This document shows positions 9,285 to 62,727 of a stretch of DNA of 64,000 bases, in pieces; the stretch's first letter is position 1; each line of letters begins with the position of its first letter. The stretch covers positions 7,478-71,477 of the forward strand of contig CAAGGG010000068.1 of the NCBI GenBank assembly GCA_900769355.1, written 5' to 3'. Position numbers and translations under genes: made by a program. A model generated the notes under the pieces. That model saw nothing but the letters and a program-made list of their open reading frames with translations, did not search any database and was not told the DNA's origin. Source of the stretch: Candidatus Gastranaerophilales bacterium (lineage in GTDB: Bacteria; Cyanobacteriota; Vampirovibrionia; Gastranaerophilales; Gastranaerophilaceae).

Positions 9285-9738
9285 TGAATATACATGAATA
9301 ATTCAACCGAAACAAACTATGCATCTATGCCTCTTGGCATCTTTGCATCTAAATCATTTTTTCGCAAGACTAATCTTGGCGGGGTAGGTACCCCGCCCTA
9401 CGTTGCTTCCTATAAAATAAGTATAGACAAATGAATAAAAACGGGTATAATAACACATGTGCACAGTAAAAAAGAAGGTGAGCTTTGTTACGAGAAATTT
9501 ATTTAGAAATGCTTTAGGGGGGGGCAAGCGTCTAGGATTTCGTTTAGTAGAGGGGGTTAATGATTTAGTAGCTAGCCGTCTAGCCGCCTTCACTCTCGCT
9601 GAAGTCTTAATTACCCTCGGCATTTCGATTATTGAAATAATATTATCAAAACGCCAAAGAGTTAATTTTACTCCTTGGCATTTTGATTTAAGTTATTTGC
9701 CGCAGGACGTACATTTTGGTTGTACGGGGGCAATGTAA
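9285..9738 (+). pseudogene. Scrambled remnant of a long-leader type IV pilin-like gene
   Basis: A leader fragment MNNSTETNYASMPLGIFASK.. ends in a stop at 9427. The G8-CAAGCGTCTAG motif is at 9516. A..AAFTLAEVLITLG (9585) then degenerates. Confidence 0.6.
9516..9523. repeat. G8 tract followed by CAAGCGTCTAGG
   Basis: Same motif as 14879-14899. Confidence 0.8.
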
Positions 9739-10055
9739 ATATGTTCAATTTGATTTCTGTTGCAATCACAATCGGCAAACGCTTTTTTGCATGTTGGACA
9801 AGGCATTATTTTAGGTTTGGCACATTCATCACATTTGACTTTTTTAACCTTACATTTGTTACAGTTTTTGAAACCTGTAAATGGGTTAAGACTGAAATTT
9901 GTTTTGTTTTCACCTATTCCAACATAAGGTAATGGATTTAAGTAAGAAATGTATGGCATTGGATTAAGTGTTTGCATGCCTTCCCAAGCAAAAGCATCTT
10001 GTGCAGAAAACGCAATTGCGCCAACCAGCGCGAGTGAAATAAATAATCTTTTCAT
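9693..10055 (-). CDS. Small secreted Cys-rich protein
   Basis: Signal peptide MKRLFISLALVGAIAFSAQDAFA, followed by a CxxC-rich tail (CNKCKVKKVKCDEC...CPTCKKAFADCDC). Confidence 0.5.
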   Translation of the reverse strand: MKRLFISLALVGAIAFSAQDAFAWEGMQTLNPMPYISYLNPLPYVGIGENKTNFSLNPFTGFKNCNKCKVKKVKCDECAKPKIMPCPTCKKAFADCDCNRNQIEHIYIAPVQPKCTSCGK

Positions 10056-10276
10056 AGAATTCTCCCTTTTGTTGTAATTTTTTAACTTCCATCTGACTAT
10101 TCCAAATGAGCTAATCAATTTGTATTTATATAATTATTTTAAACTTTATAAATGTTTTTACGATAACCAACAGAGGGATATATAGTATGCTTTTGACTTA
10201 GGAGAAAATATTAAAAAAAAATAAGGTTCATAATTATCTATGAACCTTATTTTAAATTTTGTTTATAAGTCAAATC

Positions 10277-11551
10277 TTATAGAGCTGCATTTGTTTTTGG
10301 AACAGTAGCGTTGTCTAACAAGATAACGTAAACAACTTCGCCTGATTTAGCGTGGTATTGAAGTCCTTTTGTTACCAAACCTGTTGCTAAACCAACAGCA
10401 GCACCAACAGGAGCTCCGATTGCAATACCTGTACCAATTTTAGTTGGATCAGGAATGAATGCAAAACCAACACCTGCACCAGTACCAACTGCAGCTCCAG
10501 AAACTGTGCATAGAGCCAATTTACCGGCAGTCATCCAAGGACCTTCTTTTAAAGAATTATCTTTTGTGAAAGGTTTCGCGTTAAATGCAACTTGTTGACC
10601 GGAAGGCAAAATGATTTGCGTTAGTTGAGGATATACTCTAGCGTTTTTGTTAAACCATTTTGGATCTCTAACTTCGTTCAATTGAGCAACGAACTTAGTA
10701 CCGGCTGGAAGAACAAGTGTTCCTTCTTTAGTATTGATATCTTCTGGAGCAACAAAAGAAACAATGTCACCGGCTTTGTGTTCTTCTGATTTGAATTTGT
10801 CTTCGAATGCAACAGCCAAAACGTTTCCTTCAGAAATTACTCTTTCAACGTTGTTTACTTTAACTTCATTGTTAGGAGCTTTTTTAGTTACTGCTAAATG
10901 TTCAACAGTTGTAGCTCCGATGTATTCTTGTTTAACCAAGTCTAATTTGTCTTTAAGTCTAGCCAATAATACAGCAGCTTCTGCTCTTGACAAATTGTCG
11001 TTTGGTCTTAATTCTCTTGAATCAGGATAGTTTACGTAGATACCGTAGTTAATAGTTTTTGCGTAAACGTTAGTTGCCCATGCAGGAACTTTGTTAGCAT
11101 CTTTGAATTGGTTCAAGATAGATTTATCAGCGTTCATATCTTTTGTGATATGGCTGATTACAGATTGAGCTTCTGATCTCAAAACTGTTCTTGTAGGTTG
11201 GAATGTTCCGTTTGGATATCCATAAACCAATCCAAGTTGTTGTGAACGTAAAATGTTTTCGTAGCTAGGTGTAGCTTCTGTAACGTCTGAAAATTTGTTA
11301 GAAATGTTTACATTCAAATTTTCATTAGACAAAACTTTTAATAGAGCATTAACAAATTCAACTCTTGTCATATTGCCTTCCGGATTGAAACGGTCAGCTT
11401 TTAAAGACATAATGTCATTGTCAACAACGATGTTGATCTCTTTGTTTGCCCAGTAATTTTCTCCTACATCAGCAATATTTGCAGCAAACGAAGGAGCAGA
11501 TGTTAATGATAATAAACCTAAAATCATTAATCCAGAAAAAAATTTGTTCAT
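10277..11551 (-). CDS. SLH-domain protein (2-3 N-terminal S-layer-homology repeats) with a Gly-zipper C-terminus
   Basis: Signal peptide present. The SLH-like segments are DVGENYWANKEINIVVDNDIMS...MTRVEFVNALLKV and LSRAEAAVLLARL. Confidence 0.7.
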   Translation of the reverse strand: MNKFFSGLMILGLLSLTSAPSFAANIADVGENYWANKEINIVVDNDIMSLKADRFNPEGNMTRVEFVNALLKVLSNENLNVNISNKFSDVTEATPSYENILRSQQLGLVYGYPNGTFQPTRTVLRSEAQSVISHITKDMNADKSILNQFKDANKVPAWATNVYAKTINYGIYVNYPDSRELRPNDNLSRAEAAVLLARLKDKLDLVKQEYIGATTVEHLAVTKKAPNNEVKVNNVERVISEGNVLAVAFEDKFKSEEHKAGDIVSFVAPEDINTKEGTLVLPAGTKFVAQLNEVRDPKWFNKNARVYPQLTQIILPSGQQVAFNAKPFTKDNSLKEGPWMTAGKLALCTVSGAAVGTGAGVGFAFIPDPTKIGTGIAIGAPVGAAVGLATGLVTKGLQYHAKSGEVVYVILLDNATVPKTNAAL

Positions 11552-11670
11552 CTTTAATTCCTCATATTTACCAGTAAACCTTTTTCGTGTATAATTATAT
11601 CGTAGATAGAAAAGTTTGTAAACATGTAATTATAAATTTTAATGATTTACCCAATTAAGAAAGGAAAAGT

Positions 11671-13113: not shown

Positions 13114-13132
13114 TTCTTCAAAAAATAAGGAA

Positions 13133-13160
13133 AAGACCGTCTTGCAAGGCGGTCTTTTTT
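13133..13160 (+). terminator. Rho-independent terminator after pyk
   Basis: GACCGTCTTG/CAAGGCGGTC stem plus a T6 run. Confidence 0.7.
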
Positions 13161-13302
13161 ATGCAAATTAAATTACTTTTCTTGGTAAATAATTATTAAT
13201 ATATCTTATTTTCAATTGTATTCTATTTTTGACTGTATATAATAAGTGTATAAGTTTAATTTATTCCAAGAGAGAGTACGAGATTTACATAAAGGGGAAA
13301 GC

Positions 13303-14691: not shown

Positions 14692-14714
14692 GTATTTCAT
14701 AATACCAGGCTTGA

Positions 14715-14750
14715 AAACGGTTTAAAAATATGTTAAAATGAACTTATAAG
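14715..14750 (+). promoter_or_regulatory. Sigma70-like promoter TTGAAA-17-TAAAAT
   Basis: Read from the sequence. It precedes a strong-SD uORF and the pilin locus. Confidence 0.5.
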
Positions 14751-14803
14751 AATAGAGAAATTAGGTCAGTCATTACCTGATAATCTGGATAAGGAGATTT
14801 TTG

Positions 14804-14899
14804 ATGAAATTTGAGAAGTCGTTGGAGTTGTTAAAAAATGAAAGCAACCTGATTGACGAGTGGAGCGGCACGCTCCTCGGGGGGGGGGCAAGCGTCTAG
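14804..14899 (+). other. 31-codon uORF (MKFEKSLELLKNESNLIDEWSGTLLGGGASV*) reading through a G10 tract and stopping at TAG immediately after it
   Basis: SD AAGGAG lies 7 nt upstream of ATG 14804. The G10 tract at 14879-14888 encodes GGG. The +1 frame (ORF track 14860 onward) is open for 136 codons into the pilin ATG at 15268. Confidence 0.45.
14879..14888. repeat. G10 homopolymeric tract followed by CAAGCGTCTAGA
   Basis: Counted directly from the sequence. Confidence 0.85.
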
Positions 14900-15267
14900 A
14901 ATCCTCGCCCCAACGGGGAGAGGAAGCAATCGTTAGCGAGCGGTTAGCGAGTGTTACGAGTGCAGGTGAGGGGAATTTAGATGTCAAGATATCCAGAGGC
15001 ATAGATGTAAAGTCTGTTACTGGAAAAATAAATTGTCACGCACCTCTCTCCGAGGGAGAGGTGGTTTCATCTATCCAATCGACCCCCTCACCCGAATTTC
15101 TAAATTCACTACCGTTCATTAAGAAATTCTACCCTACTCCCCTTTGGGGTGAGGGTAAGTTTACAAAAGTTTCTCACGACAATAGCTGCAATTCACGTCA
15201 TTCTGAGCGTCAGCGAAAGAATCCAGCTTATTTATTGTATAATACAAGTAAATTGAAAGGAATACAC

Positions 15268-16206
15268 ATGAATAATTTAACCGAAACAGCCCAGCCATCT
15301 ATGCCTCTTGGCATCTTTGCATCTAAATATGATGTCGGCATAGCAATGCCGACCTACTTTGCTGTTTACCCATCTAAATCTTCCCTGACAAGGGAAGACT
15401 TAAGTTTCGGTAAAATTGTGCATTATAATAATTTCAACTTAACAGAAACGGTCCATTCACCATTCACTACTCACAATTCACTTAAAAAATCTGCCTTCAC
15501 ATTGGCGGAGGTTCTCATCACTCTCGGCATAATTGGCGTTGTTGCGGCACTTACTTTGCCATCTGTAATAAACAAATATCGTAGTTTTGTGCTGGAACAA
15601 CAGTTTAAAAAATCCTATTCAAATCTTTCGCAGACTATTATAAATATGAAGCGTGATTCTGGTCTGGAACATTTGAGAGATAATTATGTTCATTATGACA
15701 CAAATTCCGGTTATGATTCTACATTGGTAAAAGCTTTTTATGATAGTTTTGACAGTCACATAGCACCTGTTGATAAGTTGAAAAAGATATATTCAGTTAC
15801 AAATTATAGTGGAACAGGAACATCAGCCACTGATTATGGGTACGATTGGCCACGAGCTCTTTTTGTTTTAGCCGATGGAAGTAGTATTGGACGTCTTGTT
15901 AATAACGGTTGTTTGCTTTTTTGGATTGATACAAATGGGCCTTACAAAAAACCTAATCGTTATGGCTTTGATATTTTTGAACTTAGAGTTTGTGACAGTA
16001 CAGATGCTTTAAAGCCTGTTAAGGCATATAAAAACAATTATACCGATGAGGAGTTGGAAAAAGAACAGTTTCCGTATATTGTAGGTGCTCCTTGCACAAA
16101 AAATTCCAAACAACTGCTAAACGGCATAGGTTGTTCTTGGTATGCGTTGAACAATATTAATCCAGATGATGAGTCGAAAAAATACTGGGATAGTTTACCT
16201 TGGTAA
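15268..16206 (+). CDS. Type IV pilin-like protein (prepilin-type N-terminal cleavage/methylation domain) with an unusually long, roughly 75-aa leader
   Basis: Starts MNNLTETAQPSMPLGIFASK, continues to KKSA|FTLAEVLITLGIIGVVAALTLPS (Glu+5), and has the C-terminal motif IDTNGPYKKPNRYGFDIF. SD AAAGGAA; TGTATAAT extended -10 at about 15229. Confidence 0.75.
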   Translation: MNNLTETAQPSMPLGIFASKYDVGIAMPTYFAVYPSKSSLTREDLSFGKIVHYNNFNLTETVHSPFTTHNSLKKSAFTLAEVLITLGIIGVVAALTLPSVINKYRSFVLEQQFKKSYSNLSQTIINMKRDSGLEHLRDNYVHYDTNSGYDSTLVKAFYDSFDSHIAPVDKLKKIYSVTNYSGTGTSATDYGYDWPRALFVLADGSSIGRLVNNGCLLFWIDTNGPYKKPNRYGFDIFELRVCDSTDALKPVKAYKNNYTDEELEKEQFPYIVGAPCTKNSKQLLNGIGCSWYALNNINPDDESKKYWDSLPW

Positions 16207-19083: not shown

Positions 19084-19692
19084 ATGAAAAACGCGTTTAC
19101 ATTGGCAGAAATTCTTATAACAATGGGGATTATTGGCGTTGTTTCGGCAATGACAGTCCCTGCATTAAATCAGAGTTGGCAAAGAGATGCTTATACAACA
19201 CAATTGAGAAAGGTTTATTCTGAAGTTGCTCAGGCAGCAGTTCGTTTAAAAACTGATAAAAACGTTCAATCTTTGGCAGAAGCGAGAATAACTTCAAATA
19301 ATATTAGAGAAGAATTTATACACAAATATTTTGTAGTGTTAAGAGATTGTCCATTAATTACTGGTTGTTTTCCAAATTCATATAAGACGGTAGGCGGTAC
19401 TACAGTAACAACTGATTCAACATCATTTGATACTTGTAGTAGTTCTGTAATTGCAAGTGGTGCTGCATTATGTTATCGAGTTGTTGGCGACCGAATTCGT
19501 ATTATTGTTGATGTTAATGGTACTAAAGATCCTAATATTTTTGGACGTGATGTATTCGCAATGGAGGTTTTACCAAATGGAAAAGTTCAAGATTCTGATA
19601 ATGGATCAGTATTTAATCCAAATGCAACCAGTATTAGGAAGGTTTATGCGTTGGGACGAATAATAAATGATGGTTGGAAGATGACATATTAA
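19084..19692 (+). CDS. Type IV pilin-like protein (short leader)
   Basis: Starts MKNA|FTLAEILITMGIIGVVSAMTVPAL. Motif VDVNGTKDPNIFGRDVF; C-terminal DGWKMTY shared with 50657. Confidence 0.8.
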   Translation: MKNAFTLAEILITMGIIGVVSAMTVPALNQSWQRDAYTTQLRKVYSEVAQAAVRLKTDKNVQSLAEARITSNNIREEFIHKYFVVLRDCPLITGCFPNSYKTVGGTTVTTDSTSFDTCSSSVIASGAALCYRVVGDRIRIIVDVNGTKDPNIFGRDVFAMEVLPNGKVQDSDNGSVFNPNATSIRKVYALGRIINDGWKMTY

Positions 19693-20545: not shown

Positions 20546-20669
20546 GTCGTTATTCTGAAAGCTTAGAAAAATATTCTAAGCGATTAGCGAAGAATAATTT
20601 TTCTTGCTATTCAGAATCTCTTGCGAAATAGAATAGACTCCGGATCGGAGTCCGGAGTGACAGTTACGG
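20546..20669. repeat. Palindromic repeat unit of the ATTCTGAA...TTCAGAAT + ACTCCGGATCGGAGTCCGGAGTGAC family
   Basis: A second copy lies at 21409-21512, with the shared tail tagactccggatcg(g/t)agtccggagtgac(a/t)gttacg. Confidence 0.7.
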
Positions 20670-20703: not shown

Positions 20704-20960
20704 CGTCATTCTTGTATGTGTTAAGTAATTCGTTGACAAAAATTTTAATCAACTACCCACTCTCATTCTCTCCCTAATTGAGGGAGAGAAGCTATACCTT
20801 GCAACTATCTCTGTTTATAATCCTGTATAGCAGCAATTTATGAATTTCAATTTATACAAAACATAAGTCTTCCCTCGGTTAGGGAAGATTTAGATGGGTA
20901 AACAATATTACGAGATAGTCTATTTTGTCAACGAATTACTTAACACATACAAGAATGACG
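20704..20960. mobile_element. 257-bp non-coding MITE-like element with 38-bp perfect terminal inverted repeats
   Basis: Left TIR 20704-20741 (cgtcattcttgtatgtgttaagtaattcgttgacaaaa) is the exact reverse complement of 20923-20960. It contains an internal hairpin repeat (cccactctc..ctctccctaattgagggagagaagct) that is also at 34325-34400. Confidence 0.7.
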
Positions 20961-21408: not shown

Positions 21409-21512
21409 GTCATTCTGAAAAGACTGAAAATCAAGCGTGTAGCGTCGATTTTCGTCTTATTCAGAATCTACTATTAATAGACTCCGGATCGTAGTCCGGA
21501 GTGACTGTTACG
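21409..21512. repeat. Second copy of the palindromic repeat unit (see 20546-20669)
   Basis: gtcattctgaaaagac...gtcttattcagaatc hairpin followed by the actccggatcgtagtccggagtgactgttacg tail. Confidence 0.7.
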
Positions 21513-24197: not shown

Positions 24198-24270
24198 TCG
24201 ACCCCTCTCCCGAATTCGTAATGTTCACTAGCGTTCGCAAACGACTTCGACCTCTTCCCTTGGAGAGGTG
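24198..24270. repeat. Roughly 72-bp GC-rich hairpin repeat (cccctctcccgaattcgtaatg..cttcccttggagaggtg), copy 1
   Basis: Near-identical copy at 24746-24816, a diverged copy at 24890-24958, and inverted partial copies at 24320-24350 and 24860-24888. Confidence 0.75.
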
Positions 24271-24361: not shown

Positions 24362-24703
24362 TTAAATCATCAACCTTCTTATATATTCTAAAACTCCTTC
24401 TAAATTATTAATATTATCGTTAGTAATTCTTACAACTTTATATCCTTTACTTGCAAGATATTCATCGCGTTCTTTGTCATAATTGCTGTTTTCAAAATGC
24501 TGAGAACCATCTAATTCAATAATCAACTTATTATCTGTACATAAAAAATCTACTATATAATTTTCAATAGGTACTTGTCTTTTGAATTTAAATCCCAAAA
24601 ATCGTTTTGCTCTTAAATTTTGCCATAGTAATAGTTCAAAGTCAGTCATGTTTTGTCTTAAATCTTTGGCATAATTTAGGATTTTTTTGTTTTGCTTTTT
24701 CAT
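24362..24703 (-). CDS. DUF559 / Vsr-like endonuclease-domain protein
   Basis: 113 aa. Motifs LWQ.LR...GFKFKRQ, IVDF.C....LIIELDG..H and YLASKGYKVVRI are typical of DUF559. Confidence 0.65.
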   Translation of the reverse strand: MKKQNKKILNYAKDLRQNMTDFELLLWQNLRAKRFLGFKFKRQVPIENYIVDFLCTDNKLIIELDGSQHFENSNYDKERDEYLASKGYKVVRITNDNINNLEGVLEYIRRLMI

Positions 24704-24745: not shown

Positions 24746-24816
24746 AACCCCTCTCCCGAATTCGTAATGCTCACTAGCGTTCGCAAACGACTTCGACCTC
24801 TTCCCTTGGAGAGGTA
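24746..24816. repeat. Copy 2 of the roughly 72-bp hairpin repeat flanking DUF559
   Basis: See 24198-24270. Confidence 0.75.
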
Positions 24817-25042
24817 AATTTGTCTAAAATAGTAGCAATGCAAAGGTTCTCTCTCCTAGGGAGAGAGCTAGAGAGAGGGGGGAATTCATTCGACCCCTCT
24901 CCCGCAGTCATAATGATTACAGCAGTTCGCGAAGAACTTCGACCTTTCGAGAGGTGTGTTTTTATATAAAACAAATAGAGACTCAGTGAAAACCGAGTCT
25001 CTATTACATGTTTTTGAATTAGCTTGACTAATTCTATACTTT

Positions 25043-25678
25043 CTATTTGCCGTACAATACAGCTCTTGCTGCTGGAGAGTTAGGTAAAATTGTTTGGTCA
25101 TAGAATTTAACAGGATAAATATCTGTTGGGCTAGACACTTTACATGAATCGCCAGATGTGCTAGAGTCGCAAGCAACGATTTTGTTAGGACCTTTTTGTC
25201 CGTTTACGTCAATGAAACCTTTACAAATGTGTCTAGTTGCACCAGAGTTATCCGGGTCGTCAGTACAAGCAGCTGAAGAATTAGGGAATGTAAATGTAAC
25301 ACCATCATTAAAGAATAATGCAGTGTTTGCTTCATCTTTTGTAGGAGCTCCTGTTCCTGACATTGTGTATGCTGTATCAGCGTTACCAAGAGCAGCTCTA
25401 ACTACGTTCATTCTTGCATTTAAGATGTTTGCAACAGAGTTTGCTGTTGTTGTTGCCCCAGCAGTACCTGCTACTGAGTCTGCAAAGCTAGCGCCGTCAA
25501 GTGCTACGTTCAATGTTACACCTTGAGAAATTGCTGATAAAGCTTTTTTGTAGGCTGCTTTATATTGAGCACCTTGAGTTGAGTTCATCAATGTAGGCAT
25601 TGTCATTGCAGCTACAACACCGATGATACCTAATGTAATCAACACTTCTGCAAGTGTGAAACCGAATCTTTTTGTCAT
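25043..25678 (-). CDS. Type IV pilin-like protein (short leader MTKRFG|FTLAEVLITLG)
   Basis: N-terminal class III signal with Glu+5. Motif IDVNGQKGPNKIV. Confidence 0.8.
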   Translation of the reverse strand: MTKRFGFTLAEVLITLGIIGVVAAMTMPTLMNSTQGAQYKAAYKKALSAISQGVTLNVALDGASFADSVAGTAGATTTANSVANILNARMNVVRAALGNADTAYTMSGTGAPTKDEANTALFFNDGVTFTFPNSSAACTDDPDNSGATRHICKGFIDVNGQKGPNKIVACDSSTSGDSCKVSSPTDIYPVKFYDQTILPNSPAARAVLYGK

Positions 25679-34324: not shown

Positions 34325-34400
34325 TTACCCACTCTCTTTCTCTCCCTAATTGAGGGAGAGAAGCTTTGCCTTGCAACTGGTCCCGTTTATAATTCTGTAA
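34325..34400. repeat. Copy of the hairpin repeat shared with the interior of the 20704-20960 element
   Basis: Sequence ttacccactctctttctctccctaattgagggagagaagctttgccttgcaactggtcccgtttataat, compared with 20754-20830. Confidence 0.7.
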
Positions 34401-37230: not shown

Positions 37231-37776
37231 TTATCGTAAGCTAAATTTGCAGCCGCAGTAATTTTGTCTGTATAAGCCTAATTCTTTGGAAATTTTGTTT
37301 GTTTTTAAAAATCCGTCTTTCTTTTTAAAATCTATTGCAAGGAATTCCAAATTATTTTCTTGGGCAATTTGTTGACCTATTTCTGAAAGTTTTTGAAAGT
37401 TTTTGTGAGGGCTAATTACAATTGAGGTGGTAAAAGTTTTTATTCCTCGAGATTTTGTAAATTCTGCCGTCTTTTTTAGGCGAAGTTCAAAACATTTGTC
37501 GCATCTTTTTCCACGTTCTGGCTCAAGTTCTAAGCCGTTTGCGACTTTGTAAAACTCTTCGGGATTATATTCCGCTTCAACCAACTCGCAGCCAAAATGA
37601 GCGCATAGTGTGCGTTCTGCATCAAGCCGTTTTTGGTATTCTTCTGCGGGATAAATATTAGGGTTGTAAAAATACACAACAACTTGATATCCTGCATCTA
37701 TCAAGCTAGACACAGGATATCCGGAACAAATTCCGCAACAGGCGTGAAGAACTATTTTATTTTTCTTCTGCTCCAT
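37231..37776 (-). CDS. queH: Epoxyqueuosine reductase QueH (DUF208)
   Basis: Motifs LHACCGICSGY, CDKCFELR and NYCGCKFS. Confidence 0.8.
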   Translation of the reverse strand: MEQKKNKIVLHACCGICSGYPVSSLIDAGYQVVVYFYNPNIYPAEEYQKRLDAERTLCAHFGCELVEAEYNPEEFYKVANGLELEPERGKRCDKCFELRLKKTAEFTKSRGIKTFTTSIVISPHKNFQKLSEIGQQIAQENNLEFLAIDFKKKDGFLKTNKISKELGLYRQNYCGCKFSLR

Positions 37777-38950
37777 ACTTTTTCACCCATTCTTTAAATT
37801 CCTTGTATGTTTTCACTCCAACGTAAGCCTCGTTGTTAATCATAGTTGTTGGAGTTCCGTTTATGCCTTTGTGAGCGGCAAAATCAATATCTGCTTTAAT
37901 TTTTTCAAAAGTTTCAGTACTGTTTGCGTCTTCTTGAAGTTTTTGAGTGTCAAATTTTGCTTTTTTTGCTAATTTTAAAATTGCTTCTTCTGTTTGCGGT
38001 TTGTTTTCAAACAAAATCTCATTCATTTCCCATAGACGTCCTTGTTTTTCTGCAGCAACAGAATATCTCGCATCTACGCAAGAGCCAACGTGGAATGGAG
38101 CTTGTAAGTAAGGATTACATTCTGTATCCAACGGATAATTCCTGTGAACGATTTTGACATTTTTCATTTCTTTTGCAAGTTTATGCATCATAACGTTGTG
38201 CACAGGGCAAATCGGACATTGATAGTCTGAATATACGTTTACAACAACTTTTGCATTCTCATCACCCAAAAGATTTCCCTTTACGGCATATTGATTTTTC
38301 TTATGTCTGAATTCTTTGAATTCCATTTGTCGTTTAACCTGCGGAGCGAACTTAAACGTAACTCTTGTGTATGTTAAAAAACCGACAGCAACTGCCATTA
38401 CAGCGATAAATGCGATTAAATATTTTTTGATTTTGATTGCATCTAAAAAGTCTTGAACACTTTGTTTAATAGAATGAACAAAGCCGCCGTTTTGGAAATC
38501 CGTTGCAACACAACCGATTGCGAGGTTCAAGATGTATGTGAAAGCGCACAAAATACATAGCTTTTTAATGTCAAATAGACTTAAACATAACAAAATCATA
38601 GAAACAATGAATGCAAATAAGCCTAATGATGCGATGTAATCAAGTGGATTTTTGAAAACTTCCATAAACTTAAATAGTTTTATGTTTTTTAATTTGTCAG
38701 CAAAAAGCATTACAAAAACAAATGCATAGTAGAACATTCCCCAATATGCCAGTGGAATTCCTAAAAATTGGGATTCTGTGGTTCTTGCAATCCCGTCACA
38801 GTCAATAAATTCATTTATTGAACAAAAACTCGGGAGCGCAAACTGATCAAAATTCGCGCTATAATAAATTATAGCAAGTTTAATTGTTGTAATTATGCCG
38901 ACAAGTGCTATTGCCGCGATTGAAATCTTTTTCTTCATTGCCTTTTCCAT
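37757..38950 (-). CDS. VKOR (vitamin K epoxide reductase)-family membrane protein fused to a DsbA/thioredoxin-like domain
   Basis: N-terminal multi-TM region with a loop Cys pair (CSINEFIDCDG) and TM CxxC (LCILCAF). C-terminal YSDYQCPICP thioredoxin-fold motif. Confidence 0.7.
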   Translation of the reverse strand: MEKAMKKKISIAAIALVGIITTIKLAIIYYSANFDQFALPSFCSINEFIDCDGIARTTESQFLGIPLAYWGMFYYAFVFVMLFADKLKNIKLFKFMEVFKNPLDYIASLGLFAFIVSMILLCLSLFDIKKLCILCAFTYILNLAIGCVATDFQNGGFVHSIKQSVQDFLDAIKIKKYLIAFIAVMAVAVGFLTYTRVTFKFAPQVKRQMEFKEFRHKKNQYAVKGNLLGDENAKVVVNVYSDYQCPICPVHNVMMHKLAKEMKNVKIVHRNYPLDTECNPYLQAPFHVGSCVDARYSVAAEKQGRLWEMNEILFENKPQTEEAILKLAKKAKFDTQKLQEDANSTETFEKIKADIDFAAHKGINGTPTTMINNEAYVGVKTYKEFKEWVKKYGAEEK

Positions 38951-39127
38951 AAATAAAGTTCTCCTATCAATAACGTTATGATACAATTTTTACAAAAATA
39001 AATCAATACCGCAAGGAAGAATATTTTAATCCTCTATTTGGGTAATTTTTGTGTTTAATTCAGGTACTTGAATAAATATTAATAATATGTTATAATTAGG
39101 ACACGTAGTATTTTTCGAGAGGTTGAT

Positions 39128-50656: not shown

Positions 50657-51471
50657 TTACCAAGGATACGTAATTTTCCAGCCATCTTGCATGATTTTTG
50701 CAGCGCAAGCTGTCCCAGAAGAATTACAATTTGAATTTATTTCTGCTGTGGTATTTGAGTATAAATCGGCTCTTACAATGCCGTCTTTAAAGTCAATCCA
50801 AAATCTAAAAAGGTCTTTTCCAAAAACATTTGGAGATTTTATACCATTGATATCAACTACAACTTCTTGTTTGGGGTTAAACATTGGCGTCCAGTGTTCT
50901 CCCCACTTTGTGAGTAAGATAAAATAAGTAACGCCGTCAGGAGTTGAAAAAAAAATTCTTCCGGCTGAATAGTTTGTGTAAATTGAAGTGTCATACGTTC
51001 TTCCGTTTTTATATTTGTATGCTATATTGCTTCCTTGCCAAGGACCACTTGGTGAAGTGTCGACATTTGCGCCATTAAAATATGGTAGCCAGTAAGTGTC
51101 AAAAAATTCTTTAACCGACTTTTGGGTGGCAACTGTTTCTTCAGTAAAATTGACTACGTCGTTGTCTGCAAGTGATTTTTGCGCGATTTGTCCGAGAGCA
51201 GAATACGCTTTTTTGAGCTTGGTTACAGTGACTTGTTTTTGGTAATTCTGGATAATAGTTGGAATAGTCAATGCTGCAACAGCGCCTATGATCCCGAGGG
51301 TGATTAGAACTTCAGCCAATGTAAAAGCGGCTCGATGCAGCTTGTCACAGAGGGCTACGTGCGTAGCACCGCTTCCTAGCTTCCTAGCTGCTTCTACAAC
51401 AGACTTTGCCTCATTTTGTTGTTTTAATGAGCTCTCGGGGGGGGGGCAATCATGGAACTATTATTAATCAT
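50657..51471 (-). CDS. Type IV pilin-like gene with a C10 tract in codons 9-12. It is out of frame as sequenced (putative phase-variable, OFF).
   Basis: Promoter TTGACA-17-AATAAT (plus 51508-51536), SD GAGGAG, then ATG at 51471. The product is MINNSSMIAPPPRAH* with 10 C. With 11 C it would be in frame with ...ESSLKQQNEAKSVVEAARKLGSGATHVALCDKLHRA|AFTLAEVLITLG.. and the rest of the pilin domain (VDINGIKSPNVFGKDLF, C-terminal DGWKITY). There is no canonical internal start. Confidence 0.6.
51437..51446. repeat. G10 (C10 on the coding strand) homopolymeric tract followed by CAATC
   Basis: Counted from the sequence. Same ctc-Gn-caatc context as 2107-2115. Confidence 0.85.
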
Positions 51472-51538
51472 TCTTTTTAACTCCTCTTATTCTTAACGTA
51501 TAAATTTATTATTTACGATATTTTGTGATTTGTCAACT

Positions 51539-56374: not shown

Positions 56375-57973
56375 ATGGGAATATTTGACAGGGTTAAAAG
56401 AGCCTACACTCTTGCAGAAATTATTATAGTATTGGTTGTAATTGCAGTTGTTGTTGCTGTGACTATGCGTGTTGCAAAAACAAAATTGGATAATATAACG
56501 ACATATACCTATTATTCTGCGTATGGTGTTTTGAATGACGTGACTGCACAAATGGTAGCCGGATATGACCCGCAACAAGATAGGTATATGGAAGTAGCAA
56601 ATGCTTCGTTAGATACTCTAAGTCGTTTTCAGTCAAGTTATAATGAGTTGTTTGTATTTGGCTCAAAGATTTCAAATTATCATAATTTAAAACAAATACA
56701 AAAAGTATTAAGTTCAGAAGTCTATGCAATAGGTGGAAATCACTGGTTCGAATTTTCTCCGGTAGAGCCTTATGGCGGAGAATGTACTATTGATGTTGAT
56801 GATTTTAATGTAAAGTACGTAAAAGCGAAATACCAAGTGATAAACAGTGAAGGTGATTACGACTGGTCTTGTCTTGGGGTGCTAGAAGCTGCAAACCGTT
56901 TCGGTCCGCCTGAAAGAGTAAAAAATCCGGATACAGGTGAGACGGGGTGGTATTGTAGAACCGCAGTAGATACTTCCAGAAAAGTTAGAATTCCATCGAG
57001 AGATGAACAATATCAAGAATATTGTCAAAATCAAAGAATGTACGAAGCTGAGCCTTTGTGTGGATATCGTACATATGATTTGTGTAAAAATACGAGTGGT
57101 TTAACATGGTCTAAAACGAAGTGTAAATGTGTAAATTCTGATGAGGAACAACCATGTACTCAGGTAAGTGAGGAACAACAAAGAAGGGATTATTGCCACT
57201 TCGGTAAAACGAATTATGATCCAAACACTTGTACTTATCTTACCGAAGGTACAGATTGTGAAAAAGGACAACATTGGAGCACAAGCGAACCTTGCGGTTG
57301 TGTGCCGGATAATGCAACTGTTCCTAGAAAAGGAGCCAATTTCTGTGAAATGTTTGTTTCATTTGTGAATACAAAAACTGGTGAGTCGCTATGTAGTGGC
57401 GGAGCAGTTGCTGCTGATGTTACTGATTTTTCTTCGATTACTCCGGATATTGTTCTTAGAAATGGAATGAGAGTCTTTAATGCTTCCCAAAATCCTGCTA
57501 ACATTAGCGAGTTTACGCTTGCTGATGGAGAACATAAAAATAGCTTTTTTACAAAAGATGATGGTACAAGAATTTATCTTGATGAATTTGGTTATACATT
57601 ATATATAGATATTGATGGTGCTAGAAACGGTAACTCAAAGTTGTGGGAAGATGTATTCCCATTCTATGTAACTCTTTCCGGCAAAGTAATTCCGGCCTAC
57701 AACACAGATGCAATAGCTCAATTTGGAGGTGGTAGCAGGTATTATCTTCAAACGAGTATTCAAGTTGATTCTGTAGATGCACAAGGTGCAACACAATTTT
57801 GGCTGGACGGAGCAAAAAGTATATCGTTTAGACAAGCAGCTTGTATGTCAGGTTATGTTGATGCTGCGGCTCAATATTGTTCGAGAAATCCGTCGATTGC
57901 AAAATCTGCGACTTGTAGTGAGGGAAATAATTCTTGCTCAATAAAAAAGGTAAGCCCGATTAGATGGTTCTAG
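56375..57973 (+). CDS. Large (532 aa) Cys-rich type IV pilin-like protein (possible minor pilin/adhesin)
   Basis: Leader MGIFDRVKRA|YTLAEIIIVLVVIAVVVAVTM (Glu+5). About 27 Cys in CxC/CxxC-rich modules. Late motif YIDIDGARNGNSKLWEDVF. Confidence 0.7.
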   Translation: MGIFDRVKRAYTLAEIIIVLVVIAVVVAVTMRVAKTKLDNITTYTYYSAYGVLNDVTAQMVAGYDPQQDRYMEVANASLDTLSRFQSSYNELFVFGSKISNYHNLKQIQKVLSSEVYAIGGNHWFEFSPVEPYGGECTIDVDDFNVKYVKAKYQVINSEGDYDWSCLGVLEAANRFGPPERVKNPDTGETGWYCRTAVDTSRKVRIPSRDEQYQEYCQNQRMYEAEPLCGYRTYDLCKNTSGLTWSKTKCKCVNSDEEQPCTQVSEEQQRRDYCHFGKTNYDPNTCTYLTEGTDCEKGQHWSTSEPCGCVPDNATVPRKGANFCEMFVSFVNTKTGESLCSGGAVAADVTDFSSITPDIVLRNGMRVFNASQNPANISEFTLADGEHKNSFFTKDDGTRIYLDEFGYTLYIDIDGARNGNSKLWEDVFPFYVTLSGKVIPAYNTDAIAQFGGGSRYYLQTSIQVDSVDAQGATQFWLDGAKSISFRQAACMSGYVDAAAQYCSRNPSIAKSATCSEGNNSCSIKKVSPIRWF

Positions 57974-58071: not shown

Positions 58072-58168
58072 AATAAGCTGGATTCTTTCGCATTCGCTCA
58101 GAATGACGTGAATATCAGCTATTTTCGTCATTCTGAGGCTCTCCAGAGCCGAAAGAATCCAGCTTATT
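58072..58168. repeat. Roughly 97-bp near-perfect palindromic MITE/REP-like element (AATAAGCTGGATTCTTTCG ... CGTCATTCTGAG ... CGAAAGAATCCAGCTTATT)
   Basis: Outer arms are 19-bp perfect inverted repeats. Inner 12-bp inverted repeat CTCAGAATGACG/CGTCATTCTGAG. Half-copies lie at 15196-15236 and 61822-61866, directly upstream of pilin genes. Confidence 0.75.
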
Positions 58169-58594: not shown

Positions 58595-58731
58595 CTTTTG
58601 GCTTGATAGCTCGTAAACAATCAAATTAATCAATACGGCGAGGTCTATTCTTTGTCGTATTAATTTTTGTCAAGCTACGTGTGCGAACGACAGATTTTAT
58701 GATACAATATAGTTACTACAAGGAGAAAAAT

Positions 58732-59076: not shown

Positions 59077-59082
59077 GAGGTA

Positions 59083-59985: not shown

Positions 59986-60842
59986 TGAAAAAGATTATTT
60001 TAGGATTAGTATTATTGCTTGTTGCTCAGAATGTTCAGGCAAAAGATTGTGAAACATTAAAATGTCCTGCACCTTATGATTTAACGTCAGGTTTTTCTCG
60101 TGGGGTCAGTACTGTGACAGGTCAAAATTTTTTGGCAGAGCGAATTGGAGAAAGTTTAACTAAAAAAGCAATTAAGAAAAATATTACAAGCGGAGATGTG
60201 AAAGTTAAACTGGACTCTTTCAGTACAAGAGATTTGAAGGCCGGAAGGTTTAAGTCGCTTGAAATAATTGGTAAAAATGCTAATGTACAGGGCGTTTATA
60301 TCTCATCTTTTGATGCGAAAACGCTTTGCAATTTTAACTACGTAGCACCTGATAAAAAAGGAAATTACGTTGTAAAAGAAGATATTCCGCTTTCTTTTGA
60401 AGCTGAAATTACAGAAGATGACTTGAACAAAACTATGCAATCTTCTGATTACAAACGTATGATTGATGATTTGAACGGTGTTACGGGCGGATTGAATTTA
60501 TTTGAAATAACTTCTACTCGTGTAAAATTGAGAAATAACAAAATGTATTACGTTATGAATTATGCAATTCCTTTTGTGCGTAAGACAAAACAGCTTGTTA
60601 TCAGTGCTGATTTGAAGGTTGAAAACAACAAAATCTTACTCGCAAATACAACTTTTATGAATAACACAATGTCATTAGATGTTGATAAACTTTCAAGATT
60701 GTTTAATTATATTAACCCACTTGATTTTTCTGCTAAAATATTGGAGAATAAAGAGGCAAAATTTAGCGTAGAAACAGTCAAGATTTCTGACGGAAAAATA
60801 AAAATTGATGGAAAAGCGACAATTCTAAAGGATAAGGAATAG
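59985..60842 (+). CDS. Secreted hypothetical protein (285 aa)
   Basis: Signal peptide MKKIILGLVLLLVAQNVQA and no confident family. Confidence 0.45.
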   Translation: MKKIILGLVLLLVAQNVQAKDCETLKCPAPYDLTSGFSRGVSTVTGQNFLAERIGESLTKKAIKKNITSGDVKVKLDSFSTRDLKAGRFKSLEIIGKNANVQGVYISSFDAKTLCNFNYVAPDKKGNYVVKEDIPLSFEAEITEDDLNKTMQSSDYKRMIDDLNGVTGGLNLFEITSTRVKLRNNKMYYVMNYAIPFVRKTKQLVISADLKVENNKILLANTTFMNNTMSLDVDKLSRLFNYINPLDFSAKILENKEAKFSVETVKISDGKIKIDGKATILKDKE

Positions 60843-60845
60843 ATT

Positions 60846-61457
60846 ATGCGAAAGAATGAACGAGTTTTTTTAGGTGTTACAGCGGTTATAATGGTTGTTG
60901 TTTGCTGTGTTTTAGGTTTGAGAATGCTTTATCATAATGATGAAAATGTGTCAGGACCTTTGACGCCGGTTCCTGAAACTCAAATTCCACAAGAGCAAGA
61001 GGAGCAACCGGAAGTTCAAAAACCTGTGGAAAAAGTTTATGCCAATGTGTTTTTCATTGGACAAGACGGTTCTAAACAAGAAGTTTATAGAGCTGTAAAT
61101 CGTCAATATGACAAAGATGTAGATGGTTCAAAAATTAAGTTTGCAGTTCGTGCTTTGATTGCAGGTCCGACAGCTTATGAAAAATCAAAAGGAGTTTACT
61201 CTGAAATTCCTGCCGGAACTCGTGTTATTTCTATAACAGAAAGTTCTGACAAGGTTGTCATCAATTTGAACTCAGCGTTTGAAAACGGTGGTGGAACAGA
61301 TAGTTTGTACAAAAGGCTTTATCAGTTGATTAAAACTGCTAAACGAAACACAAATAAACCTGTTTACTTATACATTGAGGGACAAAAAGCAGATGTTATA
61401 GGTGGCGAAGGTATTATGATTACTCAGCCGTTGAATGAAAATTCGTTGGACGGTTAG
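60846..61457 (+). CDS. GerMN-domain protein
   Basis: N-terminal TM/signal. Segment VRALIAGPTAYEKSKGVYSEIPAGTRVISI...VVINLNSAF is GerM-like. Confidence 0.65.
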   Translation: MRKNERVFLGVTAVIMVVVCCVLGLRMLYHNDENVSGPLTPVPETQIPQEQEEQPEVQKPVEKVYANVFFIGQDGSKQEVYRAVNRQYDKDVDGSKIKFAVRALIAGPTAYEKSKGVYSEIPAGTRVISITESSDKVVINLNSAFENGGGTDSLYKRLYQLIKTAKRNTNKPVYLYIEGQKADVIGGEGIMITQPLNENSLDG

Positions 61458-61460
61458 CAG

Positions 61461-61730
61461 ATGGGTAACAAAGACTTAGATTACTACCTCGGACTTGATT
61501 GGAGCGTGATAGAGGGCGAAGATACCGATTTTGACGGTAATCCGTACCATTATATTGAGATAAAAGAAATTCCGAGTTTTTTGTTCTGTGCTAAAACTTC
61601 TGAAAGGGCAAGAGAACGATATAAACAGCAGCTTAAATGGACTTTGCAGGTAATGTTGGAAAGCGGAGAACATATTATTGAACCTGGAGAAGAAGACGAT
61701 GAACCTGATTGGGAAAATCTTTGTCCATAA
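61461..61730 (+). CDS. Acidic hypothetical protein (89 aa)
   Basis: ORF with no recognised motifs. Confidence 0.35.
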   Translation: MGNKDLDYYLGLDWSVIEGEDTDFDGNPYHYIEIKEIPSFLFCAKTSERARERYKQQLKWTLQVMLESGEHIIEPGEEDDEPDWENLCP

Positions 61731-61791
61731 GGAAGCTAAAATGTTGAGAAAGGACGAAGTTCTGAAAAAATAAGATATTAGAAGAACCTTC

Positions 61792-61801
61792 GGGGGGGGG
61801 G
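61792..61801. repeat. G10 homopolymeric tract followed by CAACTTCGAAG
   Basis: Counted from the sequence. It sits in the 5' region of pilin gene 61900, flanked by CTTCG/CGAAG. Confidence 0.85.
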
Positions 61802-61899
61802 CAACTTCGAAGACACGTTTAACGCGAATGAGAATTCTTCAGAGCCGAAAGAATCCAGCTTATTTATTGTATAATACAATTAAATTGAAAGGAATACAC

Positions 61900-62727
61900 A
61901 TGAATAATTTAACCGAAACAAACCACGCTTCTAAGTCTCTTGGCATCTTTGCATCTAAAACAGTTTCGTGTCGGCATAGCAATGCCGACCTACAAAAGAA
62001 AGTCGCGTTTACCTTAGCCGAAGTTCTCATTACCCTCGGCATCATCGGCGTTGTTGCGGCATTGACTCTTCCAACTGTCATTAAGTATTACAAGGCAAAG
62101 GTTTTGGAAACAGCATTCAAAAAAAGTGTCACAAACCTTTATCAAGCCTATGATCTCACAAGACAACAACTTGGTACTGATGAAATATACTCATATTATA
62201 CAATATATAGCAGCCAAACAAACTCATATCCAAATATACAAGAATTTCAAACAACCTTTGAAAATAATTTAAAAGTAATTAAAAATTCTACTAATTGGTG
62301 GGACTTTTATCCAATCTATAATTATAATAAGACCAAATTAACAACAGAAAACATTGGAACGGATTACCCTAATGCAACTAAAATTTTAGCAGATGGAAGT
62401 TCTTATAACATGCATGTAAATTTCGACGGAAATCAAATCGCAGTTCATATATATATTGATACAAATGGTCCATATAAAGGTCCAAATCAATATGGACATG
62501 ATATTTTTAAATTTCAAATCAGACATGATAATAAATTATCACCTGTAAAAATGAATAAATTATATACAGAAGAAGAACTTGAAAAAGCAAACTACAAAGA
62601 ATTAGTTGGCTATCCATGTTCTGTCAAAAGTAAACAAGCGACGAATGGTGCAGGGTGTTCTTATTACGCAATGAACAATATAAATCCTGATGATAATTCT
62701 AAAAAATATTGGGAAAGTTTGCCTTAA
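61900..62727 (+). CDS. Type IV pilin-like protein with a long MNNLTET leader (paralogue of 15268-16206)
   Basis: MNNLTETNHASKSLGIFASK...KKVA|FTLAEVLITLGIIGVVAALTLPTV. C-terminal motifs IDTNGPYKGPNQYGHDIF and NNINPDD.SKKYWESLP. The 5' cassette is near-identical to 15196-15345. Confidence 0.75.
   Translation: MNNLTETNHASKSLGIFASKTVSCRHSNADLQKKVAFTLAEVLITLGIIGVVAALTLPTVIKYYKAKVLETAFKKSVTNLYQAYDLTRQQLGTDEIYSYYTIYSSQTNSYPNIQEFQTTFENNLKVIKNSTNWWDFYPIYNYNKTKLTTENIGTDYPNATKILADGSSYNMHVNFDGNQIAVHIYIDTNGPYKGPNQYGHDIFKFQIRHDNKLSPVKMNKLYTEEELEKANYKELVGYPCSVKSKQATNGAGCSYYAMNNINPDDNSKKYWESLP

Follow-up and report, generated by a model that had tools for sequence, protein, structure and literature searches.

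The window, a 64-kb stretch of DNA from a Gastranaerophilales bacterium, holds six intact pilin-like genes and one remnant, each with a class III (prepilin) signal of the form [A/G]↓[F/Y]TLAE[V/I], where the arrow marks the predicted cleavage site. A six-frame scan of the window for [AG][FY]TLAE[VI] gave matches at 9589 (+, the remnant), 15496 (+), 19096 (+), 25660 (-), 51325 (-), 56405 (+) and 62008 (+), and no true match beyond those seven. An earlier note on this DNA had described the loci as scattered among housekeeping genes, and the identities of the neighbours (PGI, pyruvate kinase, MFS, radical SAM, glucanotransferase, RsgA, RibF, AspRS, ClpC, Band_7) bear this out. The note had also spoken of a family of at least seven. 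The signal does occur at seven loci, but the set is not homogeneous, given that the gene at 25043 is separately conserved. Genes are named below by their lowest coordinate.

9240..9640, +: pilin remnant, comprising a D1 element with MNNSTET, a hairpin and a G8 tract (9517-9524)
9240-9353, 15214..15327 (this copy +) and 61846-61959: D1, a nucleotide repeat in three copies
14711..14899, +: candidate upstream switch module of 15268, with promoter-like site, SD, ATG, G10 tract and TAG
14890..15495, +: 604-nt stretch of GC-rich repeat and hairpin modules from the 15268 tract to the cleavage site
15268..16206, +: DUF6613-type pilin-like gene, cleavage site KKSA↓FTLAEV, mature protein of 236 aa
19084..19692, +: DUF6613-type pilin-like gene, short leader MKNA↓FTLAEI, no tract
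25043..25678, -: canonical pilin with Gly(-1), plain short leader MTKRFG↓FTLAEV, no tract
50657..51337, -: DUF6613-type pilin-like ORF, HRAA↓FTLAEV
51338..51536, -: candidate switch module of 50657, with promoter-like site, SD, ATG and C10 tract
56375..57973, +: 532-aa pilin-like protein, leader MGIFDRVKRA↓YTLAEI, 20 Cys, no tract
61771..61899, +: degenerate upstream module of 61900, with a G10 tract (61792-61801)
61900..62727, +: DUF6613-type pilin-like gene, 36-aa leader from MNNLTET, cleavage site KKVA↓FTLAEV

Prepilin signals and head domains

Both prepilin HMM matches and structural models uphold the label 'type IV pilin-like' given by the earlier note. First, the N-termini of all six intact products match prepilin N-terminal models. 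Against TIGR02532 (cut-off 16.3 bits), four score above the cut-off (19.9, 19.9, 22.6 and 16.9) and two just below it (16.1 and 15.0); against PF07963 (cut-off 21.2 bits), one is above and the remaining five score 13.6-20.7. In every case a hydrophilic leader ending in Gly or Ala precedes a hydrophobic stretch of about 21 residues, and Glu at +5 (alignment position E9) is invariant in 14 of 14 aligned sequences. Second, in the two AF2 models (pLDDT 93.7 and 88.8) an N-terminal helix of 52-53 residues leads into a beta-sheet head. This predicted fold is the pilin lollipop, with an alpha1 helix of about 50 residues on an antiparallel beta-sheet. The best structural matches of the models are pilins and minor pilins, and comparison of the globular head returned no close solved relative.

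Models for particular subfamilies fit less well. The T2SS major pseudopilin GspG model (TIGR01710; best score 26.6 against a cut-off of 88.85 bits) and the ComGE equivalog HMM (29.3 against 49 bits) match at the N-terminus only, and the NCBIfam models for H-X9-DG and DUF1559-type families do not match the window's products. Pilus machinery and PilD are absent from the 64-kb window; pilA, pilB, pilC, pilT and pilD have been reported in Gastranaerophilus (PMC5877343).

Ala at -1, which the earlier note had assigned to all copies and regarded as non-canonical, is found in most of them, with Gly in 25043. Among 221 relatives this residue is Ala in 182, Gly in 37 and Ser in 2. Because review definitions have the leader end in 'Gly or Ala', and Ala(-1) occurs in Com pilins (PMC10191384, PMC7212644), it falls within the textbook definition of a class III signal and is not novel.

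The proteins of 15268, 19084, 50657 and 61900 belong to a huge, fast-diverging family confined mostly to Gastranaerophilales, in which D.NG..K.PN..G.D.F is a beta-hairpin in the head. This C-terminal signature, once thought common to the copies, is present in these four; 25043 has no more than a part of it (IDVNGQKGPNK) and 56375 a divergent version (DIDGARNGNSKLWEDVF). It is conserved outside the window, where alignments of 79 and 73 homologues show almost no variation in it, and the very large repertoire that had been predicted is evident from more than 7,400 matches per search and from 6,403 50%-identity cluster representatives for the C-terminal domain alone. By tblastn, 572 of 596 genome stretches were verified as relatives, and the 80 loci listed among the relatives are nearly all from Gastranaerophilales or Melainabacteria. 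Among precomputed DUF6613 (PF20318) matches, those of the 50657 product and its relatives carry a weak or faint flag; the match in one related species carries none. A local hmmscan of the six products from the window gave no PF20318 match at E ≤ 1, and with a limit of E ≤ 10 there was likewise none for the mature forms of 15268 and 61900 or for four homologues.

The 25043 gene, preceded by a good SD and a promoter-like site, is conserved at 59-99% full-length identity in more than 100 clusters, and is a separately conserved canonical pilin distinct from the DUF6613-type genes. The 56375 protein has the 532 aa first reported for it, with 20 Cys and not about 27.

Homopolymer tracts upstream of the cleavage sites

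G/C tracts of 8-10 lie in the window at 9517, 14879, 51437 and 61792, where about 0.1 would be expected by chance. At 50657, a promoter-like TTGACA-17-AATAAT (51536-51508), an SD AAGAGGAG (51488-51481) and an ATG (51471-51469) open the module. After 8 codons comes the C10 tract (51446-51437), and beyond it the pilin frame is open for 108 nt. Because of this tract the ATG at 51471 is one base out of the pilin frame, and the window allele is therefore predicted to be OFF. The earlier note had placed a single pilin locus at 50657-51471; a pilin-like ORF is there, but the 815 nt are not one ORF. Between the C10 tract and the cleavage site there is no in-frame ATG, GTG or TTG. Since three of the other genes have short leaders without a tract and two have internal starts, 50657 is the sole strictly tract-dependent gene in the window.

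The module upstream of 15268 runs from a promoter-like site (14711-14739) through an SD (14791-14796) to an ATG (14804); 25 codons further on lies the G10 tract (14879-14888), and then a TAG stop (14897-14899). The 15268 reading frame is open upstream to 14860, and the stretch from tract to cleavage site is open in the pilin frame only. As G10 leaves the ATG unfused to the 14860-16206 frame, the upstream start is OFF in the window; G11 or G8 would fuse the two and give a leader of about 230 aa. In the degenerate module of 61900, the G10 tract is in frame with the pilin, yet a TAA at 61771-61773 closes the upstream ORF. The orthologue P0097 has Leu at this position.

Inside both 15268 and 61900 there is a further SD+ATG (MNNLTET), from which translation could start without passing through the tract switch. 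Counted from it, the leaders measure 76 aa (15268) and 36 aa (61900), where 70-75 aa had been given for the MNNLTET leaders. The D1 copy at 15214..15327 holds an extended -10-like TGTATAAT, an SD AAAGGAA and the ATG of MNNLTET. The copies at 15214 and 61846 are 93% identical, whereas the encoded 15268 and 61900 proteins are only 49% identical, and 15268 and 61900 use different reading frames across the hairpin that follows D1 (GTCGGCATAGCAATGCCGAC). In the remnant, the surviving coding piece is RLAA↓FTLAEVLITLGI (9586-9630), the rest of the gene being lost. The earlier note had not remarked on G/C tracts in leader-coding regions, on the frameshifted locus or on the nucleotide-level repeats that make up most of the long leader.

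The same layout recurs in many Gastranaerophilales species: SD, ATG, 7-25 codons, poly-G/C tract, an open frame of at most 600 nt, and cleavage site. Twenty-seven of 43 tracts of at least 8 lie within 200 nt upstream of a pilin motif, a zone that makes up 4.8% of the sequence (p=4e-25). Of the 28 segments from tract to motif that measure at least 45 nt, 25 are open in the pilin frame and 0 in each other frame. An SD+ATG is present 20-85 nt upstream of the tract at 31 of 34 loci, and the interval from tract to cleavage site is devoid of an in-frame ATG at 21 of the 34 and of ATG, GTG or TTG at 16.

Tract length also varies, the comparison being between assemblies or samples and not within one population. 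At the 50657 locus we find C9 (L097), C10 (L090-L093) and C11 (L096) between near-identical flanks, and the C11 allele corresponds to P0303, exactly the predicted ON product of this locus. A leader-swap junction between strains falls at window positions 51330-51332. The 15268 locus, likewise with near-identical flanks, has G11, an ON allele, in L098/P0019 versus G10 in L099/P0018, and P0019 begins with the window's own uORF peptide MKFEKSLELLKNESNLIDEWSGTL. Tracts of G8, 9, 11, 12 and 14 occur between samples at a related locus whose flanks are near-identical; there, G8, G11 and G14 yield proteins of 260, 261 and 262 aa and G9 and G12 yield truncated calls, with about 37 contigs in frame versus about 19 out of frame. 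In silico, translation from the SD+ATG runs through to a full prepilin where the tract length is in frame (P0303, P0019, P0282, P0290, P0218) and ends within a few codons at other lengths. Several 90%-identity clusters mix full-length and truncated 'MAEVLITLG' forms.

Candidate slipped-strand switching and its alternatives

We propose, with a probability of about 0.72, that these genes are type IV pilin-like and that many act as contingency loci, with slipped-strand mispairing in a cleavable leader as the switch. A large fraction of the DUF6613-type family, including 50657 and 15268, would be organised in this way, in the order promoter, SD, ATG, 7-25 codons, G/C homopolymer of 8-14, leader-coding region and cleavage site, with a leader-coding region of a few to more than 200 codons kept open in the pilin frame only. 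Slipped-strand mispairing would alter tract length, seen as polymorphism between samples, and a processable prepilin would come only from lengths that keep the ATG in frame. Both tract-controlled starts in the window (C10 and G10) would be OFF. Prepilins would presumably be cut by the lineage's PilD and then built into, or displayed by, type IV pilus machinery. Because the leader is probably cytoplasmic and cut off, it could hold the tract, variable Gly/Pro runs and inserted genome repeats while the mature protein stays unchanged; because it would be discarded upon the predicted cleavage, it can reach tens to hundreds of residues. Leader cassettes would also pass from one strain to another through recombination at the conserved DNA that encodes AFTLAE. 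A likely role would be stochastic ON/OFF variation of a large set of pilus subunits or adhesins under gut immune or phage pressure.

A bolder version, to which we give even odds, is a var-gene-like system in gut Melainabacteria: each genome would have prepilin genes in the tens to hundreds, each gated by its own tract in a giant, repeat-built disposable leader and mostly OFF, and leader cassettes would be shuffled from gene to gene by recombination at the conserved signal-peptide DNA.

It is unlikely, in our judgement, that the products are not pilus subunits but membrane-anchored or secreted surface proteins that only use a prepilin-type signal, as in the greatly expanded prepilin-signal families of Planctomycetes, Verrucomicrobia and Lentisphaerae, and whose variation serves another function, such as substrate binding or a role as phage decoys. 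A repertoire so large, diverse and dispersed among housekeeping genes outside pilus operons would suit such proteins, as would the globular head without a close solved relative and the fact that a separately conserved canonical pilin (25043) is already there. The alpha1 helix with its fully conserved Glu5, however, is the assembly interface in type 4 filaments, and both the structural matches to pilins and minor pilins and the lack of matches to the H-X9-DG and DUF1559-type NCBIfam models argue for subunits.

The frame of the reference loci raises a different question. Thirty of 31 are out of frame (OFF), where chance would predict two-thirds, an excess to be explained by strong selection for OFF or by some other mechanism. 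One such mechanism would make the out-of-frame state functional: the pilin would be made by programmed ribosomal frameshifting or by RNA-polymerase slippage on the G/C run, the short uORF would act as translational regulator, and DNA length changes would be secondary. In its favour, 22 of the 30 have the pilin in the -1 frame, all 20 G10/C10 tracts are configured alike, the uORF usually ends 3-6 codons past the tract, and C10 is the allele of five assemblies at the 50657 locus. Nevertheless, we judge it quite improbable: besides those 22, there are 8 loci with the pilin in the +1 frame; every locus examined has in-frame alleles, which dominate at the related locus described above; and the alleles of 8, 11 and 14 there, exactly 3 nt apart, fit selection for the zero frame. 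To our knowledge, efficient slippage is an established mechanism for A/T runs and not for G/C runs.

Very improbable is the view that these are ordinary pilin or minor-pilin paralogues whose tracts are nearby REP/MITE-like repeats and whose translation begins at internal or near-site starts without phase variation: similar GC-rich hairpin repeats do occupy other intergenic regions of the window (families D3, D6, D9 and D15), a tract at 2107-2115 precedes a non-pilin gene, the SD+ATG of two genes comes from D1 and the hairpin read in two frames implies constraint at the nucleotide level, but this view is at odds with the exclusive openness of the pilin frame, the tract enrichment upstream of pilin starts, the many intervals without an in-frame ATG and the full-length ORFs that in-frame alleles yield from the SD+ATG.

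Relation to known systems

The genes share with type IV pilins (IPR012902, TIGR02532, PF07963) a leader ending in Ala or Gly, Phe or Tyr at +1, Glu at +5 and about 20 hydrophobic residues, as well as the predicted long alpha1 helix and beta-sheet head. They differ in that the head of the window family (weak DUF6613) is without a close solved homologue, leaders can run from 40 to more than 200 aa, and the genes are dispersed, very numerous and outside pilus operons. Com pilins of monoderms (ComGC-GG) likewise have Ala(-1) and a similar N-terminus, with partial matches of 17-29 bits to NF040999 and NF041013, but the cut-offs of these families, at 49-75 bits, are much higher than any of the scores. 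Moreover, Com pilins are of about 95 aa with 8-15-aa leaders and come from one operon, whereas the mature parts of the window proteins are of 200-520 aa.

Long leaders have been described for the T4aP major pilins of Streptococcus sanguinis, where 'very long leader peptides' are compatible with prepilin processing (PMC10191384). Processing of leaders as long as the 47-230 aa predicted here is without direct precedent. Those of S. sanguinis are reportedly of tens of residues, free of a homopolymer tract and not built of genomic repeats; the Gastranaerophilales leaders, in contrast, can carry both tract and repeats.

Dispersed paralogues in tens to hundreds, with only the class III signal in common, are also typical of the DUF1559/H-X9-DG and Verru_Chthon cassette families of Planctomycetes, Verrucomicrobia and Lentisphaerae. 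The phylum and the C-terminal domain are different, the only match being N-terminal (TIGR02596, 23.5 bits against a cut-off of 70), and we know of no homopolymer switch reported for those families.

The closest parallel to the proposed switch is with poly-G contingency loci such as Neisseria pilC and those of Campylobacter jejuni and Helicobacter pylori, in which a G/C homopolymer of about 8-14 lies in the 5' coding region, a one-base change turns translation ON or OFF, and the products are surface or pilus-associated. Here, by contrast, the tract is in the probably cytoplasmic leader of the prepilins themselves, for which PilD cleavage is predicted, and lies up to hundreds of nucleotides of repeat-derived leader away from the mature protein; a whole multigene family is affected, in a non-pathogenic uncultured lineage.

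In the bolder version given above, this would be the first contingency-locus repertoire described in the Cyanobacteria/Melainabacteria lineage and the first use of a PilD-cleaved leader to hide a frameshift switch. Gastranaerophilales are common, uncultured inhabitants of the human and animal gut whose surface biology is little known. If their pilin repertoire is indeed large and phase-variable, these commensal cyanobacterial relatives would be under strong diversifying pressure (IgA, phage, adhesion niches), and poly-G contingency loci would reach beyond the classical mucosal pathogens. In MAGs most such genes are annotated wrongly, either called as truncated 'MAEVLITLG...' proteins or extended into long ORFs from spurious starts, and their predicted ON/OFF state is readable directly from metagenomes.

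Pilin-like genes and their relatives

A six-frame scan of the window for the class III signal core returned exactly the seven loci that the earlier note had listed, flanked, as it had also stated, by housekeeping genes; no genes for pilus machinery were found within the 64 kb. Their positions, and the cleavage sites read from translation (marked by a slash), are as follows.

Pilin-like loci of the window
Remnant (9240..9640): core at 9589 (+), RLAA/FTLAEV
15268: core at 15496 (+), KKSA/FTLAEV
19084: core at 19096 (+), MKNA/FTLAEI
25043: core at 25660 (-), MTKRFG/FTLAEV
50657: core at 51325 (-), HRAA/FTLAEV
56375: core at 56405 (+), VKRA/YTLAEI
61900: core at 62008 (+), KKVA/FTLAEV

The headline feature of the earlier note was Ala at the last leader residue (-1), which it held to be present in every copy and non-canonical. 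Six loci do carry Ala and one (25043) has Gly, but the residue is not unusual: position -1 is Ala in 182, Gly in 37 and Ser in 2 of the collected relatives, and all five Com pilins of S. sanguinis likewise end their leaders in Ala (PMC10191384, PMC7212644). Overall, the first description of the loci was confirmed in part and its headline feature proved ordinary, while the underlying loci are of more interest than it had conveyed. Several details also changed. The 532-aa protein has 20 Cys rather than about 27, the leaders beginning MNNLTET are 76 aa (15268) and 36 aa (61900) long rather than both roughly 70-75 aa, and the proposed gene interval 50657-51471 spans 815 nt, which is no multiple of three.

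As had been anticipated, all six intact products match prepilin N-terminal models. Four exceed the TIGR02532 cut-off, with the other two short by at most 1.3 bits, and one exceeds that of PF07963; GspG, ComG pilin and other equivalog models matched the N-terminus only, at scores far under their cut-offs. The C-terminal signature D.NG..K.PN..G.D.F, said to be shared by all, is present in the 15268, 61900, 50657 and 19084 proteins; 56375 has a divergent version and 25043 a partial one. In two homologue alignments (79 and 73 sequences) it is almost invariant, and a profile of the C-terminal head, with the N-terminal helix excluded, matched 6,403 cluster representatives (50% identity; 775 at E <=1e-10), and therefore the signature is, as expected, conserved far outside the window. 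AlphaFold models built from homologue alignments (pLDDT 93.7 and 88.8) both have an N-terminal helix of 52-53 residues followed by a mixed head with beta-sheet, in which the signature forms a hairpin linking two central strands; a Foldseek search of the PDB gave no significant match. In sequence and modelled fold the proteins correspond to type IV pilins, and they are predicted to be processed and assembled as such. The lineage has been reported to have type IV pilus genes, including pilD (PMC5877343). Housekeeping ORFs read through intact with table 11, which rules out an alternative genetic code. A VKOR-thioredoxin/DsbA fusion at 37757-38986 (-; Pfam VKOR plus Thioredoxin_4/DSBA) is a plausible candidate oxidase for disulfides in Cys-containing pilin heads.

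Each homology search returned more than 7,400 significant relatives, few of which are named in the sources (‘prepilin-type N-terminal cleavage/methylation domain-containing protein’). Scanning a single genome for each GTDB species gave at least 596 family stretches, at least 572 of them confirmed. The best 80 of these confirmed loci come nearly all from MAGs of Candidatus Gastranaerophilales or Melainabacteria, two of which go under the wrong names ‘Brachyspira sp. CAG:484’ and ‘Clostridium sp. CAG:967’. Precomputed Pfam matches, most flagged weak, assign DUF6613 (PF20318), an assignment that local hmmscan did not reproduce. The 25043 protein, with PF07963 as its sole domain, is 59-99% identical over its full length to members of more than 100 clusters; the simplest reading is that it is the canonical pilin of the lineage. 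The literature covered, searched for melainabacterial pilins and phase variation, mentions type IV pilus genes in general terms only; no paper in it joins Melainabacteria to phase variation and none mentions DUF6613.

Homopolymeric tracts ahead of pilin-like genes

Five G/C homopolymers of 8-10 nt occur in the window (35% G+C), versus about 0.1 expected, and four of the five adjoin pilin-like genes. The arrangement at the 50657 locus is given here in coding-strand order.

Elements upstream of the 50657 pilin (-)
Promoter-like site, TTGACA-17-AATAAT
SD, AAGAGGAG
ATG at 51471, then eight codons, then C10
108 nt between C10 and the cleavage site, open in the pilin frame only

These 108 nt hold no ATG, GTG or TTG, and the upstream ATG is off the pilin frame by one base. 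At the 15268 locus, a promoter-like site and SD precede an ATG (14804), 25 codons and then G10, shortly after which a TAG closes the ATG frame; the pilin frame is open across all 604 nt from tract to cleavage site, and both other frames are stop-rich there. In a like module at 61900, a TAA six codons ahead of the tract ends the reading frame; the orthologue P0097 has Leu there. The fifth homopolymer, G9 at 2107-2115 (C9 on the minus strand), shares the ...GATTG-C(n)-GAG context of that at 51437 and is flanked by a TTGACA promoter-like site and the SD and ATG (2061) of a minus-strand, non-pilin gene, which extends past the window edge and whose product contains an EF-hand-like DKDKNG motif; this homopolymer is a candidate intergenic tract for phase variation.

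When the best 80 genome loci and the window were analysed jointly, 27 of 43 tracts of at least 8 nt lay no more than 200 nt ahead of a pilin start, a zone making up 4.8% of the sequence (p=4e-25). The segment from tract to cleavage site (at least 45 nt and up to 604 nt) is open in the pilin frame in 25 of 28 cases and in either other frame in none. An SD-preceded ATG stands 20-85 nt upstream of the tract in 31/34 loci, no in-frame ATG occurs between tract and cleavage site in 21/34, and neither ATG, GTG nor TTG does so in 16/34. Together, the missing start codons, the open pilin frame and the SD-ATG ahead of the tract argue that a processable prepilin could only arise by initiation upstream of the tract, and selection appears to have kept the frame open from tract to pilin. 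A GGG or PPP run is found in 23 of the 43 representatives with leaders longer than 40 aa.

Leader lengths among 135 diverse cluster representatives
12 aa or fewer: 39
13-40 aa: 28
41-100 aa: 23
More than 100 aa: 20

Tract-length variation and the excess of out-of-frame alleles

Tract lengths differ between assemblies. For the 50657 locus, a search with the protein of the out-of-frame (OFF) form and its RibF neighbours gave C10 contigs only, and the other lengths were reached through cluster members of the in-frame (ON) form; flanks of these alleles are otherwise 96.7-98% identical.

Tract alleles by locus
50657: C9, contig L097
50657: C10, the window and contigs L090-L093
50657: C11, contig L096
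15268: G10, the window and contig L099
15268: G11, contig L098, encoding P0019
Related-species locus: G8, 260 aa, full length
Related-species locus: G9, truncated call
Related-species locus: G11, 261 aa, full length
Related-species locus: G12, truncated call
Related-species locus: G14, 262 aa, full length

The C11 product, P0303 (MINNSSMIAPPPESSLK...HRVA/FTLAEV), exactly matches the predicted ON product. P0019 begins with the peptide of the window's own short upstream ORF, MKFEKSLELLKNESNLIDEWSGTL, then reads on via GGGG into the pilin; its leader is 138 aa long. The five lengths at the related-species locus come from ten contigs. Several 90%-identity clusters mix full-length and truncated ‘MAEVLITLG...’ forms, each from many independent contigs, which argues against random assembly error. 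Of the 11 contigs that include the ribF neighbour, two (L094 and L095) stop in the C tract or at its edge (window ~51440-51460), which suggests assembly breaks from heterogeneity at, or just past, it. Such variation between assemblies is what slipped-strand mispairing would leave at a contingency locus; pilC of pathogenic Neisseria, with its G(9-20) tract inside the gene (PMC5953494), is the classic analogue.

Of 31 SD-ATG-tract loci in reference genomes, 30 are out of frame, where chance would give about two-thirds, and all 20 G10/C10 tracts lack one base for the in-frame length. We favour the explanation that OFF states predominate under selection, to which a mutational preference for G10 perhaps adds. 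A minority alternative is that pilin is made by frameshifting or transcriptional slippage on the G/C run of such out-of-frame alleles; however, in-frame alleles prevail at one locus and the 8, 11, 14 series is spaced by exactly 3 nt, and both observations point to ordinary zero-frame expression.

Poly-G contingency loci are a known kind of switch. What is new is the apparent placement of the switch in a cytoplasmic prepilin leader predicted to be cleaved by PilD, at times hundreds of codons away from the mature protein, and this putative switch would affect a whole multigene family of an uncultured commensal lineage.

Leader modules, recombination and other elements

The stretch from tract to cleavage site is a mosaic of GC-rich modules and hairpins, and the modules reappear in other proteins in differing order. 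One hairpin, GTCGGCATAGCAATGCCGAC, gives DVGIAMPTY in the 15268 leader and SCRHSNADL in that of 61900; constraint thus falls on nucleotide sequence and an open frame rather than on the peptide. The conserved 5' leader was also considered as a known riboswitch or other RNA, but Rfam at gathering thresholds returned two tRNAs and a 6S RNA only; a translated leader accounts better for the hairpin, given that two different frames run through it and that the reading frame is kept open.

The dispersed repeat D1 (copies at 15214-15327 and 61846-61959 are 93% identical) supplies an internal SD and ATG (MNNLTET), and about half of homologues are without its start. Between strains, 50657 orthologues have the entire upstream cassette swapped, with the junction (window 51330-51332) within conserved AFTLAE-coding DNA. 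Many relatives carry a tandem AFTLAE...GATHVA...AFTLAE arrangement, which would fit unequal recombination at this sequence. The tandem partial signal AFTLAE-GATHV(A/D)xxDxxR(R/K)x-AFTLAEVLITLG is seen in P0037, P0126, P0132-P0134, P0140 and others (compare window 51338-51400); P0126 and P0128 differ solely by a 20-aa tandem unit, and the GATHVA module holds the palindrome GCTACGnnCGTAGC. Silent cassettes feeding an expression site, as in pilS/pilE, found no support: a separate promoter-like site, SD and ATG precede every gene, and strains share the synteny of the orthologues, even though leader regions recombine.

Dispersed intergenic GC-rich hairpin repeats (REP/MITE-like) pair 20754-20827 with 34326-34399, 20632-20668 with 21476-21512 and 15176-15207 with 58106-58137, and some are modules of long pilin leaders, such as the ...CGTCATTCTGAG... 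‘RHSE’ module. A 69-nt GC-rich repeat (24201-24269, 24747-24815, 24893-24961) has two copies, 99% identical and 546 nt apart, that bracket an ORF (24362-24703) for a 113-aa DUF559 protein, a Vsr-like endonuclease; this arrangement, directly downstream of the canonical pilin gene (25043), is a possible small mobile insertion. A second copy of the 3' half of tRNA-Met (52 nt, 94% identical) lies 4.3 kb downstream of the first (2309-2392 and 6641-6692). The interval ~2385-6692 contains part of a tyrosine-recombinase-like ORF (2615-2935, -) and the gene for an SH3-domain phage lysozyme (4824-5447), and resembles a small element integrated at tRNA-Met or what is left of a prophage there. Directly downstream of the 61900 gene is the 6S RNA (62809-62988; RF00013, 47.8 bits versus a gathering score of 46.4), preceded by a promoter-like TTGAAA-17-TATAAT site at 62776-62804.
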